A stretch of DNA of 64,000 bases, taken from positions 4,064,001 through 4,128,000 of the forward strand of contig CBDIID010000003.1 in NCBI GenBank assembly GCA_965279515.1. Direction: 5' to 3'. Source of the DNA: Turneriella sp. (GTDB lineage Bacteria; Spirochaetota; Leptospiria; Turneriellales; Turneriellaceae). The notes under the pieces are model-generated. The model did not search any database and was not told where the DNA came from. It was given only the letters and a program-made list of their open reading frames with translations. The position numbers and the translations under genes are program-made. Within the stretch, counting starts at the first letter, position 1. Every line of letters starts with the position of its first letter. Shown piece after piece: positions 38,705 to 63,729 of the stretch.

Positions 38705-39706
38705 TCAGGGCTTCAATTCGGTCGGTATTATTTCGAAGTTCATCCGCCGGTTATCCCGAATTATAGTCAGATCCACACGATTCAACGCCTCCTTTTGACT
38801 CAGAAGGCGGTGTAGTACGTCGATGCTCGCGACTGCTTCGCCGTTCAAATAGACAATAATGTCGCCGTATTTGAGCCCAACCGTGGCAGCCGGCGAACGG
38901 CTCTCCACATGTGTCACCAAAACCCCGGTTTCACCGATTCTAAGGGACCGCGAAACGACGCGCGGAAAGCGTGTGTTCGAGACACCGACGCCAAGATACG
39001 CGCGGCGTATCTTACCCTCGCGTATCAGGTGCATCACCACAAACTGCGCGGTATTTGCAGCAATCGCAAAACAGATGCCCTGCGCCGAGGGGATGATGGC
39101 ACAATTGACGCCGATGACGCGCCCTGCCGAATCGATGAGTGGCCCGCCGCTGTTACCGGGGTTTAAGGCAGCGTCGGTCTGTATGATGTCGTCCATCAGG
39201 CGCCCCGACTGGGCGCGCAGCGACCGGCCCGTGCCGCTGACGACGCCGGCGGTTAGGGTGTAGTCAAAACCATAGGGGTTGCCGAGCGCGATGGCGATCT
39301 GGCCGGCGCGCAGAGCCGCCGAGTCGGCGAATTCGAGGGCCTTGAAGCCAAAGCCGTTGATCTTCAGCACGGCGAGATCGCTATGCGGGTCATTGCCCTG
39401 TATCGTCGCAAAATAGCGGCCGCCGTCGAGTGTGCGTACCTCGATGTCGCCTTGTGCCGCGACGACATGCGCATTGGTCACGACATAACCTTCGGGGCTG
39501 ATAAAAAATCCGGAACCTGTACCCAGTACCGAATCGCGCTTGCCCTTTTTGAGCATTGTGATTTTGACCACCGAGGGAGAAACCGCGGCGGCGACGGAGC
39601 TCACCGTATGCGAGTAGGCATCGAGCAGCACCGCATCGTTGCTTGCGGGGGCGCTTTGCGCCCCGGCTACCGAGTGTTCAGAGGAGACAAGTTTTAAGGC
39701 CGGCAT
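38705..39706 (-). CDS. HtrA/DegP-like trypsin serine protease with PDZ domain
   Basis: TNAHVV, DLAVL, QTDAALNPGNSGGPL, PDZ. Confidence 0.92.
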   Translation of the reverse strand: MPALKLVSSEHSVAGAQSAPASNDAVLLDAYSHTVSSVAAAVSPSVVKITMLKKGKRDSVLGTGSGFFISPEGYVVTNAHVVAAQGDIEVRTLDGGRYFATIQGNDPHSDLAVLKINGFGFKALEFADSAALRAGQIAIALGNPYGFDYTLTAGVVSGTGRSLRAQSGRLMDDIIQTDAALNPGNSGGPLIDSAGRVIGVNCAIIPSAQGICFAIAANTAQFVVMHLIREGKIRRAYLGVGVSNTRFPRVVSRSLRIGETGVLVTHVESRSPAATVGLKYGDIIVYLNGEAVASIDVLHRLLSQKEALNRVDLTIIRDNRRMNFEIIPTELKP

Positions 39707-39751: not shown

Positions 39752-41587
39752 TTAGCGCTTCTCAGAGCCGAGCTTTTCAAAATCCACCGCGAGCTCGATC
39801 TTGTGATCGCTCAGGTACCTGAGAATCGCGAGGTTGTTACGGCTCACCGTTTCATGGTAGCGGGTGTATGGCTCGACAAAATATTGTATGCGGATATAAA
39901 AACCGAAGGCGTCGAATTTCATAAAGTGCACCTCAGCCTCGGGGCTATAACCTGAGGTTTCGATGATTTTTTTGATTTCAACAATCGTCGTTTCTACGGT
40001 GGCGACGCCGGTTTTCTGGTCGAGCAGAATCTTACCGCGGAACATCCGCTTCTGCCCGCCCGAGGTGACGTTGTTGACAAAACCGTTTGCCAAAATCGAA
40101 TTCGGTACGACGAGAATACTGTTATACTTGGTACGGATCGTCGTCGAACGCATGCCGACCTTTTCGACGCGGCCCCAGGTCTTGATCGGCGCATCGAGCA
40201 GCAGGTAGTCCCCCTCTTTAATGACCTTATCAATGTAGAGAGAGATGCCGGCAAAGATATGGCTCACCGCCTCGCGGCCTGCCATCGCCAGCGCGAAACC
40301 CCCGACCCCGAGACCCGCGACGGCAGAGTAGATATTGTAGCCGACCCGGTTCATCATCACCAGGAAGCCCATGAAATAGATGACGATTTTGCCGGTGCGT
40401 ATCAGCAGCGGAAAAAGGTGAGCCATTTCGGAGTCGTCGGGCCGCGCACGCAGGCGTTCGCGCCAGCGCAGCATCGAATTGGTAAAGAGCCGCGACGCAA
40501 ATATTGTCAGCAGCCAGATGACGGCTACCATGAGCGCCGATTGCACAATAACAAGAATCTGCGACGGTATCGCCAGAAATCTGATGCCGACCTTGATCGA
40601 GACGAGAAAGGCAATGGAGTAGATATATTTTTTCAGCGTGCTCAGAACCAGGTCAAAAAAAGCCACGCTCTTTTGCAGGTCTTCGTCCTTACGCATTTTC
40701 AGCCGCAGCAGAATCAGCAAAATACGGCTGAAGATCAGTGCAGCGAGAATCAGTGCGCCGAAATAGATCCACTGCAAGAGCGGGTTTTCGAGAAACATCG
40801 TGCGTTTGAGGTATTCGATCGGATTATTCGACGGTTCTTTATGCGCAGAAATACTGAAATGACCGTGCCCGAGTTTGGCGAATTCATAGAGAATTCGCAA
40901 AATCCCCTGGGGGTTTCCTTCGAGGGCCGTGACTTTCAGATCGGGAATCTCTTTAATCTTCACGCTTGCCGGGTCGGCCAGCAGCTCGTAGATCTTGCGC
41001 TCTTCAAAATATTTGAATGGCTGAAACATTTGCCGGTACTCTTCGGGTTTGCCGAGAAACCGGCGTACGAACAGGCATGTTGCCCAGCGGTGGTGGCCGT
41101 CGAGAATATAATATTTACCGTTTTCGTATGCAGTGAGAATGCTACCGTCGCAGGCGGAGAATTTTTTCTCGATGCTCAGGGTATCGATCACCTTAGGCGC
41201 GATGTTACCCCAGTAAATTTCAAACTGCGTCGGCACGAGGTCGCCGAGATTATCGAGGCGTTCATCGCGGCGTATCTTAACCTTGTCCTCAGGTTCGCCG
41301 GTTTCCAGTAGTTTTTCGAGTGAGCTGATGAACTGAAAATCCTTCGCCTGGTCGCCGGGGTTCAGTTCAATTTTACCGTCAGAAAGCCAGGCGAGAATTT
41401 CTTTTTGTTCCGCACCCGAGAATTGCGGCATGTCGGCATGGTGCATTGCCCATTTCGGCGCAGGCGTCGTGAAGAGCTTCATCTGCGCAATCCGCTCCGG
41501 GTGGGCGTTCTTATCGATGCGCGGCTCGAGACAGCCCGCTAAAGAAAAGGCAAAAAACGCCCAGGAAAGTCTTCCGGAGAACTGCAT
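39752..41587 (-). CDS. MscS-family mechanosensitive channel with N-terminal lipobox and ParB/Srx-like domain
   Basis: LAGC lipobox; LVPTQ and YYILDGHHRW; GLGVGGFALAMAG, GRVEKVGMRST, VPNS. Confidence 0.85.
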   Translation of the reverse strand: MQFSGRLSWAFFAFSLAGCLEPRIDKNAHPERIAQMKLFTTPAPKWAMHHADMPQFSGAEQKEILAWLSDGKIELNPGDQAKDFQFISSLEKLLETGEPEDKVKIRRDERLDNLGDLVPTQFEIYWGNIAPKVIDTLSIEKKFSACDGSILTAYENGKYYILDGHHRWATCLFVRRFLGKPEEYRQMFQPFKYFEERKIYELLADPASVKIKEIPDLKVTALEGNPQGILRILYEFAKLGHGHFSISAHKEPSNNPIEYLKRTMFLENPLLQWIYFGALILAALIFSRILLILLRLKMRKDEDLQKSVAFFDLVLSTLKKYIYSIAFLVSIKVGIRFLAIPSQILVIVQSALMVAVIWLLTIFASRLFTNSMLRWRERLRARPDDSEMAHLFPLLIRTGKIVIYFMGFLVMMNRVGYNIYSAVAGLGVGGFALAMAGREAVSHIFAGISLYIDKVIKEGDYLLLDAPIKTWGRVEKVGMRSTTIRTKYNSILVVPNSILANGFVNNVTSGGQKRMFRGKILLDQKTGVATVETTIVEIKKIIETSGYSPEAEVHFMKFDAFGFYIRIQYFVEPYTRYHETVSRNNLAILRYLSDHKIELAVDFEKLGSEKR

Positions 41588-62217: not shown

Positions 62218-62580
62218 GTGAAAATTCTCGTGGTTGAAGATGATCCAGCCACCCAGTTTTTACTGAAGATTTGGCTTGAACCATTGGGGGAGATTTTTAT
62301 CTGTAATCACGGCGGAGAGGCATGGGAAATCCTTACCGGCGGGGCCATGTTCGACTTAATCGTGACGGATCACGAAATGCCTTGGCTAACCGGAAGAGCC
62401 CTGGTCGAGAAGATCCGCTCCGAGAAAAAATTTGATGGGATTCCAATTATTATGGTAACCGCGTCCATCGATCCTTTGGAAGTAGATGACCTGAAGATCC
62501 ACGGCTTTTTTGAGAAACCGATCAAACCAGAGGCCTTAATTGCCGCCGCACAAGGTGCTATGCGGAGCTCAGGACTCTAA
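62218..62580 (+). CDS. Single-domain response regulator
   Basis: LVVEDD, VTDHEMP, MVTA, FEKP. Confidence 0.85.
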   Translation: MKILVVEDDPATQFLLKIWLEPLGEIFICNHGGEAWEILTGGAMFDLIVTDHEMPWLTGRALVEKIRSEKKFDGIPIIMVTASIDPLEVDDLKIHGFFEKPIKPEALIAAAQGAMRSSGL

Positions 62581-63729
62581 TTCCGGAATATACTGCGGCT
62601 CGTCTTTATTGGGGGACGCCGCACGGTAGGCCTTAAGTGCCCGAACGGTTGCCCGCCGCTCACGGCTGAGAAAAGCGCCGATAGCCTCTGCACCCTGGGG
62701 ATGAAAAAGCTTATGGCTGCTATAGACGGGCATTGCGGTGAAGCCCCGCTGGAATTTATGTTCGCCCTGCGCCCCAGCCTCAAAAAGCGAAATCTTCTCT
62801 GCAATGGCAAAATCGATCAGCCGGTAAAAACAAAGTTCAAAGTGCAGATAAGGGTAATGCGCCGCGGCGCCCCAGTAGCGCCCGAACAGGCGGTCATCCT
62901 TGCGGAAGGCGATCGAACCCGCAACCCAGGCTTTACCTTCGCGTGCCAGCACCAGAACAAGCTGATCTGCCATACACTGGCGCAGCAATAAAAAACATTC
63001 GAGGTTGAGATAGGGGGATCCCCACTTGCGGGAGTAGGTCTGGATATAAAATGTATACATGGCACGCATATGCTCTTCAGAAATTGCCTCGCCGGTAAGC
63101 GTCACAATTTCCAGTCCGAGTTCGCTGCATTTACGGCGTTCGCGTTTGATCTCTTTGCGGCGGTGAGAGCGCAGTTGCGCCAGGTAGTCCTCAAAATCCT
63201 GGAATCCCCGGTTCAACCAATGGTACTGGTGCGTGAGACGGGGCATGTAGCCGAATTCAGAAAGCAGTTTTTGTTCTGCGCGGGTCAGGCAGAGAAAATG
63301 AATTCCTGAGGCGCCTGTGGCCTCGGCCTCGTCGAGTTTTTCAATGAGTCCTCGTGCAAGACCGGCAGCGTCACTGCCCACGAGAATGCGCCGGCCCGAG
63401 GCTGGAGTAAAGGGCGCCGCTACGGTAATTTTCGGGTAATATCTCAGCCCGCCCTGTTCATAGGCATTGGCCCATGCCCAGTCGAAAATATATTCGCCGT
63501 AAGAGTCGCCGCGCAGGTAGGCGGGAATCACTCCCACCAGTTGATCATCTGCGAATGCCGCGCTAAAGGCCGTCAACCAGCCGCTTTTTTTACCGGTGCA
63601 GCCGGTTTCCTCGAGCGCTGAGAGAAATTCATGGCGCATAAAAGGATTACCCGCTTCGACGAGCGTATTCCACGCATCGGGATGAATTTCCTTTATGGAA
63701 GTCAGGCGCCTGAATGTGTATTTAGCCAA
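62569..63729 (-). CDS. GNAT/FemAB-like conserved protein
   Basis: SYGEYIFDWAWA, PFTPA, GRYWG, LHFELCFY, GAQGEHK. Confidence 0.88.
   Translation of the reverse strand: MAKYTFRRLTSIKEIHPDAWNTLVEAGNPFMRHEFLSALEETGCTGKKSGWLTAFSAAFADDQLVGVIPAYLRGDSYGEYIFDWAWANAYEQGGLRYYPKITVAAPFTPASGRRILVGSDAAGLARGLIEKLDEAEATGASGIHFLCLTRAEQKLLSEFGYMPRLTHQYHWLNRGFQDFEDYLAQLRSHRRKEIKRERRKCSELGLEIVTLTGEAISEEHMRAMYTFYIQTYSRKWGSPYLNLECFLLLRQCMADQLVLVLAREGKAWVAGSIAFRKDDRLFGRYWGAAAHYPYLHFELCFYRLIDFAIAEKISLFEAGAQGEHKFQRGFTAMPVYSSHKLFHPQGAEAIGAFLSRERRATVRALKAYRAASPNKDEPQYIPELES

Follow-up and report, generated by a model that had tools for sequence, protein, structure and literature searches.

In the window (the whole 64,000-nucleotide stretch of Turneriella DNA analysed here), positions 39752-41587 of the minus strand form a single open reading frame of 611 amino acids with zero internal stops in translation, which carries FSLAGC (with Cys19), LVPTQ (aa 117-121) and YYILDGHHRW (aa 159-168). 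All parts read by the initial annotation, namely a signal with an LAGC lipobox, a soluble part with LVPTQ and YYILDGHHRW, and then transmembrane helices and an MscS core, were found again in this frame. The features are as follows:

39752..41587, minus strand: whole gene, 611 aa, lipoprotein signal, ParB/Srx-fold domain and five-helix MscS-like channel
41531..41587, minus strand: lipoprotein-type signal (aa 1-18) and lipobox Cys19 (41531-41533), by pattern and conservation
40853..41533, minus strand: predicted periplasmic ParB/sulfiredoxin-fold domain (N-domain), aa 19-245, by AF2 model, structure matches and conservation
41423..41440, minus strand: H50-x-x-MPQ motif, aa 50-55; R-x-x-MPQ in the family, His/Tyr/Gln for Arg in the fusions
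41348..41413, minus strand: insertion 1 (aa 59-80), extra to the family core and seen as a gap in the profile-profile alignment
41225..41233, minus strand: PTQ motif, aa 119-121; Gln121 aligns with SerK position 30 (wild type Glu30)
41075..41152, minus strand: Cys146 (41150-41152) and Cys171 (41075-41077), putative disulfide pair, invariant in the fusions
41087..41101, minus strand: DGHHR phosphate-binding motif (GxxR of the fold), aa 163-167, beginning model helix 147-159
40958..41062, minus strand: insertion 2, aa 176-210, three short helices by model and profile-profile alignment, candidate contact surface
40787..40852, minus strand: variable linker, aa 246-267, mean identity 36%
40268..40786, minus strand: five YnaI-type membrane helices, approx. 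aa 268-294, 322-340, 344-366, 392-412 and 418-437, by hydropathy, YnaI alignment and loop charges
40064..40270, minus strand: MscS beta domain, aa 440-508 (PF00924, E = 1.4e-12)
39788..40057, minus strand: putative MscS alpha/beta cage, approx. aa 511-600, with nothing beyond (PF21082 below cut-off here)

A 216-base contig from one sequencing run, whose RNA nature is only a guess, covers positions 40773-40970.

The architecture of lipoprotein signal, N-domain and MscS channel is common to 25 database proteins: the first search for relatives gave 23 other two-part proteins (N-domain identity 49-87%, 2 of the 23 truncated), and a later search added one. Of the 13 further genomes in the genus labelled Turneriella, 8 have the fusion (9 of 14 including this one), and it was not found in the other genomes read. 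Two public contigs cover the stretch in one piece with zero differences, and may themselves be the source of this DNA. An assembly chimera absent in relatives, which the initial annotation had named as one case against its own reading, is ruled out by the 25 proteins, the other genomes of the genus and the unbroken public contigs; the fusion is genuine and conserved in one spirochaete genus. The same annotation did not recognise the architecture, and in the literature searched we likewise found no paper describing a ParB-fold/MscS fusion.

The channel core is intact and is the most conserved part of the protein (83%). Pfam recognises MS_channel_2nd (PF00924, 48 bits, cut-off 20.2) and, at aa 400-437, MS_channel_1st (PF21088, 23.5 bits, cut-off 23.1), while the PF21082 cage scores 15.3 bits against a cut-off of 21 and is listed for 11 of the 23 other fusion proteins. 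The best solved match is E. coli YnaI (PDB 9h2p, 6urt), which also has five helices, and the alignment to it spans aa 281-512 (E approx. 1e-11), with all five helices and the beta domain. The pore helix is rich in Gly and Ala and carries two hydrophobic constriction residues, F431 and M435, which align with the YnaI constriction residues L154 and M158 (PMC13591265) and are each at least 90% conserved among the fusions; at the first constriction the fusion has Phe for Leu. Unlike the fusion, YnaI is without signal peptide, lipid anchor or periplasmic domain. Hydropathy, the YnaI alignment and the loop charges (Lys + Arg per loop of 6.9, 0.45, 4.5 and 0.9) agree on five helices with the start of the first helix outside, and the channel presumably assembles as a heptamer.

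The signal is 22% identical among the fusions, and in the window protein it is short and modestly hydrophobic (best 12-residue Kyte-Doolittle mean 1.82), while every row whose N-terminus is intact (21 of 21) retains the lipobox Cys (a 22nd row, P0023, has a later annotated start and was left out). By pattern, the short signal, lipobox and conserved Cys are those of a bacterial lipoprotein, Lgt and signal peptidase II (LspA) families are present in the genome, and Cys19 would be lipidated. Both members of the Cys146/Cys171 pair occur in 12 of 103 non-fusion family members, one alone in 1 and neither in 90, and the pair follows export signals; C146-C171 is probably a disulfide that staples the domain. 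DsbB was not found in the genome, and a VKOR-family protein is present. Because of the topology, the conserved lipobox and the Cys pair shared with exported relatives, we infer that the N-domain lies on the periplasmic side, and the export proposed by the initial annotation is thus supported.

The AF2 model of the N-domain reached a pLDDT of 92.4 and supersedes an earlier model from a 9-row alignment (pLDDT 50) with its weak fold searches. In a structure search (VIA), the top nine rows were all of the ParB/Srx superfamily (Z 5.7-3.3, the next unrelated row 2.8; each Z-score taken singly falls below the safe level of the tool), the best being sulfiredoxin (Z 5.7, rmsd 3.5, 86 residues aligned). 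Foldseek found a phage ParB/Srx-domain protein in BFVD at E = 1.7e-4 and zero PDB matches at E <= 0.001, with ParB first in the list at E = 0.04. Sequence searches against the PDB, with the N-domain alone or a 9-row profile, gave nothing meaningful, and Pfam gave sub-threshold matches only, to ParBc_2 (E = 0.027) and DUF1015 (E = 0.004, scanned alone). ParBc_2 (PF08857) scores 15 bits here against a cut-off of 23.6, and 25.4 in the relative P0029; Atu1540 has a Z of 4.8. In the ESM Atlas the N-domain stays below 0.8, a lead only, while the relative P0035 reaches 0.91-0.92 to ParB_N, ParBc_2 and unnamed phage clusters (153-156 shared features, against 170 typical within a family). DdrB-like ParB (PF18763) has no match in the fusion, and in three phage proteins it matches a stretch separate from the DGHHR domain. 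The alpha/beta core, with GxxR at a helix start and PxQ/PxE upstream, is in place, and the modelled structure shows the N-domain to belong to the ParB/sulfiredoxin fold superfamily. The fold proposed by the initial annotation therefore holds, on the AF2 model and structure matches, but its statement that this fold is normally cytoplasmic needs qualifying, as secreted DGHHR ParB-fold toxins are published (PMC3482391) and the nearest relatives are exported.

An identity as ParB, SerK or sulfiredoxin is excluded by those proteins' own residues. SerK and SbnI (PDB 5x0b, 5x0j, 5ujd) share the fold (Z 4.6 and 4.0) and DGHHRW, and the family profile finds SerK as its best match by sequence (E = 0.0014), but the fusion has Gln at the position of Glu30 (which we take to be catalytic, in agreement with the PDB titles of the E30A and E30Q mutants), has no SerK C-terminal domain, is exported, and scores 11.5 bits against the NCBIfam cut-off of 380. 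ParB CTPases, PadC, Noc and KorB have the same core fold (PadC Z 5.2, KorB Z 4.6) with PxQ and GxxR, whereas the fusion has GHHR for GERR and, by motif, a Glu (E123) at the Box I Arg, and is periplasmic; neither the HTH and dimerisation domain (Pfam) nor the parA neighbour of a canonical ParB clamp was found. The catalytic Cys of sulfiredoxin sits in a GCHR motif. At this site the fusion has His165, and it differs from sulfiredoxin (PDB 6ky4, 1yzs; top structural row) also by its MPQ-bearing N-terminal extension and the two insertions. Tox-ParB toxins likewise have a secreted ParB fold with a conserved DGHHR (PMC3482391), but they are C-terminal tips on RHS/filamentous carriers, have immunity genes and act in the target cell, whereas the fusion domain is N-terminal and anchored in its own membrane, and no C-terminal tip with an immunity gene was found at the fusion loci.

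By profile match, and with MPQ, PxQ and DGHHR in order, the N-domain is a member of the R..MPQ / PxQ / DGHHR family (phrog_2859-like), which is uncharacterised and common in large phage proteins (e.g., BFVD A0A6J5MIF4, K7Z9N4). The phrog_2859 profile matched 9 of 11 members of the alignment, including 1 of 3 fusion rows, not the window's own. The nearest relatives are stand-alone exported cellular proteins, not phage ones; they occur in Chlamydiota MAGs and share the Cys pair, and one is fused to a NodZ-like glycosyltransferase (28.2 bits, cut-off 28.3). Phage members lie in or beside nucleotide enzymes (NUDIX, zeta-type kinase, cytidylyltransferase-like, Acb1, NT5C, thymidine kinase), some are fused to portal proteins, and one adjoins an anti-CBASS gene. 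An MscS domain is absent from all 113 other family proteins collected and from all 101 other loci, and a search for a stand-alone Turneriella domain of 126-406 residues gave two fragments of the fusion and nothing else. Three profile matches (P0026, P0027, P0032) were repeat proteins and were discarded as noise. Across the phylum, the profile matched in 23 of 401 genomes; the 13 loci checked besides G000 and G002 have no MscS domain, and in 12 loci the matched stretch was, by eye, in canonical-ParB-like, prophage-like or carrier-tip proteins (8 weak matches without a locus were left out of this reading, as was a strong match in G168, a 3,327-aa frame).

The Arg three residues before MPQ is present in every non-fusion protein that could be evaluated (100 of 100) and in every viral row (65 of 65), phage and exported relatives alike, and in 0 of 23 fusions. 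The fusion keeps PTQ and DGHHR; all 24 aligned fusion proteins have DGHHR unchanged, which is more than chance, as is the retention of the lipobox Cys, and in insertion 2 E195, I199, L203 and K210 are invariant among the fusions. The stem branch of the fusions is long (3.45 changes per column), and since the pocket motifs survived it and do not vary among fusions whose N-domains have a mean pairwise identity of 57%, the pocket is under selection. The loss of the Arg would fit a decay of nucleotide binding equally to a shift from catalysis to sensing, and the variable linker would suit loose tethering equally to coupling.

Our preferred reading, put forward tentatively, is that the cap formed by the N-domain is a binding pocket for a phosphorylated ligand which tunes tension gating, as an outward-facing counterpart of bCNG channels. 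The protein would be a YnaI-type heptameric inner-membrane mechanosensitive channel, each subunit with a periplasmic ParB/Srx-fold domain anchored at both ends, by lipid on Cys19 and by the first membrane helix at aa 268. The retained phosphate pocket would consist of Q121, D163, H165, H166 and R167, and because the family's second Arg is gone, it most likely binds a phosphorylated ligand more than turning it over. To hypothesize on ligand identity and gate coupling, the ligand may be a nucleotide or nucleotide derivative in the first place, with pyrophosphate or a lipid phosphate possible, and its occupancy would reseat the cap against the outer helices and thereby alter the tension threshold or the hysteresis of opening. 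That the domain gates or feeds the channel, as the initial annotation suggested, is likewise a hypothesis. The intact channel core, the pocket under selection and the nucleotide enzymes found with phage family members speak for this reading; the low structural scores to solved proteins, the scarcity and short life of free NTPs in the periplasm and the neighbouring genes, which indicate no pathway, speak against it. It has been shown that 11 of 28 purified diverse ParB-fold members bind CTP, ATP or GTP via the GxxR Arg, while 17 of 28 bound no NTP and none tested was periplasmic (PMC12704722). E. coli MscK and MscM likewise join an MscS-like pore to an exported N-terminal periplasmic domain able to influence gating, the periplasmic parts of YnaI, MscK and MscM move in gating, and deletion of the MscM ring lowers hysteresis (PMC13591265); MscK and MscM, however, are eleven-helix proteins whose large periplasmic domain is helical, in contrast to the five helices of the fusion, its lipoprotein anchor and its alpha/beta nucleotide-binding fold. 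The bCNG channels are also MscS-like pores that acquired nucleotide-binding domains (PMC13591265), but with a C-terminal cyclic-nucleotide domain, while the domain of the fusion is of unrelated fold, N-terminal and periplasmic, and in a Pfam scan the fusion does not qualify as bCNG.

A rather unlikely competitor is a purely structural role, where seven doubly tethered domains would make a periplasmic ring or spacer with mechanical gating and no soluble ligand, the pocket being retained for the sake of folding or to hold a metal ion or lipid head group. The absence of the family Arg in 23 of 23 fusions, the two lineage-specific insertions with conserved residues (new contact surfaces) and the periplasmic rings that shape MscK and MscM gating (PMC13591265) agree with it, and an osmotic role is plausible since the genome has one further MscS and no MscL match; yet D163, H165, H166, R167, Q55 and Q121 are retained over a very long branch, beyond the need of a scaffold. 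It is unlikely, too, that the domain is an enzyme tethered at the mouth of the channel which hydrolyses or transfers nucleotide phosphate, or nicks fragments of nucleic acid, with products entering for salvage and a uridine-kinase-family protein with a cNMP domain as cytoplasmic partner. Q121 lies in PxQ, whose Gln (Q58, mapped by motif) is required for CTP hydrolysis by ParB (PMC8367383), the active kinase SerK shares DGHHRW, and the closest relatives are exported and stand-alone, one with the NodZ-like domain just below cut-off, but the loss of the Arg weakens a catalytic role. In 6 of 9 genomes the kinase gene and the fusion stand head-to-head, but since the entire block is syntenic, this adjacency says little. 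In G000 and G001 the gene lies elsewhere, in G010 it was not found, and three genomes carry it although no fusion was found there; we give this partner little weight. Additionally, as MscS pores are shut at rest and non-selective, such a pore would be a poor importer.

A bolder variant of the ligand-binding reading, which we regard as improbable, is an outward-facing nucleotide-gated MscS, where an exported phage-conflict nucleotide enzyme domain without its catalytic Arg became a receptor that opens or primes the pore upon periplasmic nucleotides. If true, this would be a bacterial parallel to channels gated by extracellular ATP, built from unrelated parts. It is very doubtful that a domain derived from phage conflict detects nucleotides of lysed neighbours or phage-injected products and depolarises the cell by opening the pore. 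The portal fusions, the anti-CBASS neighbour and the use of DGHHR-type ParB domains as toxin tips (PMC3482391) would suit such a sensor, but PADLOC (2023 library) gave zero family matches for 5 proteins, the nearest relatives are cellular, and the fusion is single-copy and occupies a stable housekeeping site throughout the genus, unlike defence islands. Finally, the domain could be cytoplasmic and sense NTPs there if the signal stayed uncleaved as a sixth membrane helix or the helices were miscounted; the short, modestly hydrophobic signal of this protein would suit this, but the five-helix alignment to YnaI, the loop charges, the conserved Cys19 and the Cys pair that tracks export make it highly improbable.

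According to a 2026 review, several MscS-like channels left osmotic protection and little is known beyond E. coli (PMC13591265); the fusion bears on the role of the extra domains and copies of MscS-like channels, within the range of one genus of environmental spirochaetes. With it, an uncharacterised ParB/Srx family comes into view whose members include phage, chlamydial and further exported proteins, and as the N-domain gives no PF02195 match, a recent survey based on PF02195 would miss it. With a standard YnaI-type pore, a candidate periplasmic pocket and 25 natural variants it is a compact test, where the informative residues are R167, H165, C19, C146/C171 and H50.

Translation of the window gives, for the fusion gene, one uninterrupted frame with the following layout:

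39752-41587, minus strand: whole frame, 611 aa
N-terminus: short signal closing in FSLAGC, with Cys19 as lipobox cysteine
Soluble part, about 245 residues: MPQ at 53-55, LVPTQ at 117-121, YYILDGHHRW at 159-168
C-terminal channel: Pfam PF21088 at 400-437 and PF00924 at 440-508, both above cut-off; PF21082 below its cut-off

The signal with an LAGC lipobox, both longer motifs and the MscS core, all noticed by eye in the initial annotation, are present in this single frame, and the observation is confirmed. The architecture is real and adds a further form to the MscS-like channels that carry accessory domains. When residues 20-265 were used as query, 24 proteins came back, the window's own among them, with 49-87% identity across the domain; two have Turneriella as source label. 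One more fusion protein came from a later search, and all 25 contain a match to the channel part. Among the 61 genomes examined, the domain was found in the genome carrying the window (G000) and 8 of 13 others of the genus, fused to the channel in all nine, and in none of six other genomes of the family and none of 41 further genomes of the order and class; the fusion is limited to one genus. The five genus members without a detected domain have a completeness of 77-99%, four showing only a separate MscS of 285-300 aa and one no MscS. The profile of the wider family matched 23 of 401 genomes of the phylum, with the fusion at the loci of G000 and one other genome (G002) and at none of 13 other loci checked, eight weak matches lying outside that check. 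The whole stretch is spanned by two public contigs with zero differences, which are possibly this DNA's own source; occurrence in 25 proteins and 9 of 14 genus genomes shows that the fusion is not an assembly chimera. Among 22 near-full-length fusions, the pore and beta domain show the highest mean pairwise identity (83%), followed by the N-domain (57%), cage (56%), outer helices (50%), linker (36%) and signal (22%), so that the N-domain is constrained as strongly as most of the channel.

The architecture is apparently previously undescribed, and no description of this fusion was found in the literature searched, most subscription papers, among them older surveys of MscS domain architectures, being outside its scope. 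A ParB-fold survey (PMC12704722) searched with PF02195, to which the fusion domain has no match; its main text does not mention mechanosensitive, MscS, signal peptide, periplasm, transmembrane or secreted, and no MscS term occurs in six supplementary text files, possibly not all its datasets. The account of bacterial MscS-like channels in PMC13591265 includes no such domain. The fold had been described as normally cytoplasmic, which needs qualification, as exported Tox-ParB tips carrying DGHHR are already known (PMC3482391).

The N-domain alone gives only sub-threshold matches, to ParBc_2 and DUF1015 (Pfam) and to SerK. Its model from a 9-row alignment was poor (pLDDT 50), while 118 rows gave pLDDT 92.4 and pTM 0.88. 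When the model was compared with 48,161 solved chains, sulfiredoxin came first (Z 5.7, rmsd 3.5, 86 aligned), followed by PadC (5.2), Atu1540 (4.8), pNOB8-like ParB (4.7), SerK (4.6), KorB (4.6), human sulfiredoxin (4.4), SbnI (4.0) and SspE (3.3), with the first unrelated structure at 2.8, every one of these Z values being under the level the tool deems safe singly. Foldseek against the PDB returned no matches at E <= 0.001, the top of its list above that value being ParB, Noc, sulfiredoxin and SerK; among viral models, six passed that threshold (best E 1.7e-4), four of which bear the name ParB/Sulfiredoxin, and SerK is the best PDB sequence match of the family profile (E 0.0014). Since the structure, viral-model and profile lines agree, the proposed ParB/sulfiredoxin fold is, as a model-based assignment, sound.

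All 100 evaluable non-fusion proteins and all 65 viral rows have an Arg three residues ahead of MPQ; none of 23 fusions does, the residue there being His (17, one row read from the alignment), Tyr (5) or Gln (1). The non-fusion set was picked by MPQ and DGHHR, not by Arg, so conservation of those two motifs in it is circular. Judged by motif, Q121 corresponds to ParB Q58, which is required for CTP hydrolysis, and H165 and E123 take the places of ParB E102 and R60 (PMC8367383); on alignment, Q121 also stands at SerK position 30. The domain is thus neither a ParB clamp nor a serine kinase, and the Cys of sulfiredoxin is likewise missing from it.

E. coli YnaI is the best solved match of the channel (aa 281-512, E about 1e-11, all five helices covered), its constriction residues L154 and M158 (PMC13591265) aligning with F431 and M435. 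Mean Lys+Arg in the four loops is 6.9, 0.45, 4.5 and 0.9; under the positive-inside rule these charges predict that the first helix starts in the periplasm, where the N-domain would then lie as well. All 21 rows whose N-terminus is complete retain the lipobox Cys, and the genome encodes Lgt and signal peptidase II families; export and lipidation of the domain, as proposed in the initial annotation, are predicted from sequence. As it would be tethered at both ends, the domain should lie against the periplasmic surface of the inner membrane. G000 has two MscS-family genes in total, the other encoding 291 aa, and its whole genome gave no MscL match.

C146 and C171 are invariant among fusions, and a disulfide between them would be the simple reading, lending support to export. 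A VKOR-family protein is encoded in the genome, where DsbB was not found. Among 103 other family proteins, 12 have both cysteines, one only the first and 90 neither; in the 94 judgeable, an upstream hydrophobic stretch accompanies 7 of 10 with the pair versus 6 of 84 without it, kin not being independent. A tree was built from 88 rows (all 16 chosen fusion rows, all 17 Cys-pair rows and 55 of 156 others at random); in it, fusions group with 15 Cys-pair rows, several from Chlamydiota MAGs (support 98/93), a grouping that may be helped by the long fusion stem (3.45 changes per column) and by the Cys columns themselves. Six related proteins without the pair (P0058, P0073, P0075, P0098, P0109, P0125) have an N-terminal hydrophobic stretch; three of these (P0073, P0098 and P0125) group with P0069 in the phage-type part of the tree, which suggests a separate move to export.

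The first profile search, over 1.84 billion representatives, gave 14 matches: nine non-channel proteins with MPQ or MPV, PxQ and DGHHR, two that are the fusion or a fragment of it, and three repeat proteins dropped as noise. A second round covered 120 of 124 proteins, 13 genome loci and, of 229 viral stretches, the best 80. Among 65 distinct viral frames, 47 have a length of at least 300 aa. Of the 11 members in the seed alignment, 9 were matched by phrog_2859 (function unknown). Pfam matches were obtained in 13 of 42 viral frames scanned (none in 29), among them four portal proteins, three frames where ddrB-ParB forms a domain of its own, two with NUDIX, two with a zeta-type kinase and one with a cytidylyltransferase-like domain. 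Short stand-alone phage genes occur in 10 loci, with cytidylyltransferase-like genes near three, Acb1 with NT5C near one and thymidine kinase with zeta-type kinase near one (56 of 85 frames scanned). These domain partners and neighbours of the phage members point to nucleotide handling, without naming a substrate. Individual loci (L numbers) were also noted:

L030, L050, L078, L083: viral contigs with the DGHHR domain joined to a phage portal protein
L032:1370-2783: phage stand-alone gene between Acb1 anti-CBASS and NT5C nucleotidase genes, a candidate counter-defence nucleotide enzyme
L016:3978-5519: 514-aa signal-bearing protein, NodZ-like glycosyltransferase (just below cut-off) plus the DGHHR domain, which suggests nucleotide handling beside an exported glycosyltransferase
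L015:578-1198 and 1261-1884: tandem duplicates of the stand-alone exported form
L114:1138-2778 and L126:1138-2778, minus strand: MscS-like frame of 547 codons in another genus of the taxonomic family; its start resembles a signal, and the N-terminal domain is a different one that carries no annotation

The initial annotation had proposed a nucleotide- or phosphate-ligand module gating or feeding the channel, and this interpretation stands in part only. With the pocket kept, the channel intact and the domain clamped at the periplasmic face, a ligand-binding cap would tune tension gating, a testable mechanism that we favour tentatively and with less than even confidence. On this face YnaI expands as it opens, and the periplasmic rings of MscK and MscM influence gating (PMC13591265); against ligand binding counts a recent screen in which 17 of the 28 ParB-fold proteins purified did not bind any NTP, and specificity was predicted by neither sequence nor AlphaFold3 (PMC12704722). 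A structural cap seems possible but unlikely, and a tethered enzyme feeding the pore is more doubtful again. A danger sensor, for which Acb1 beside one phage relative would speak, we consider improbable, no PADLOC model being matched; the genomic context looks housekeeping-like, without naming a pathway. A cytoplasmic domain is, given the loop charges, the most improbable of these readings.

In the nine fusion genomes, the fusion lies within a stable gene block, in the order LigB-type dioxygenase, FemAB-like GNAT, cNMP plus uridine-kinase gene (6 of 9, head-to-head with the fusion), fusion, optional HtrA or CusA-type gene, short conserved gene, bactofilin and hydrolase. The kinase gene occurs in 11 of 14 genus genomes, in three of which no fusion was detected; the fusion-bearing G010 gave no match to it. 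Its 693-aa cNMP-binding and uridine-kinase-family product was found in none of six other genomes of the family. In G000 and a related genome (G001) it adjoins genes resembling purine catabolism by eye. The features concerned are:

L021:2423-4501, minus strand, and G000:C3:2795032-2797098: 693-aa cNMP/uridine-kinase fusion
38705-39706 of the window, minus strand: HtrA-type protease with PDZ domain, without an obvious signal peptide by eye, beginning 46 bases past the fusion
41717-62577 of the window: chemotaxis, response-regulator and cyclase-type genes over about 21 kb, their third-position GC being lower (0.45-0.58)
62572-63729 of the window: GNAT gene

The protease was seen next to the fusion only in G000 and G001. 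The 21-kb stretch separates the GNAT gene from the fusion and, since the two abut in G001 and L010, looks like an inserted island.
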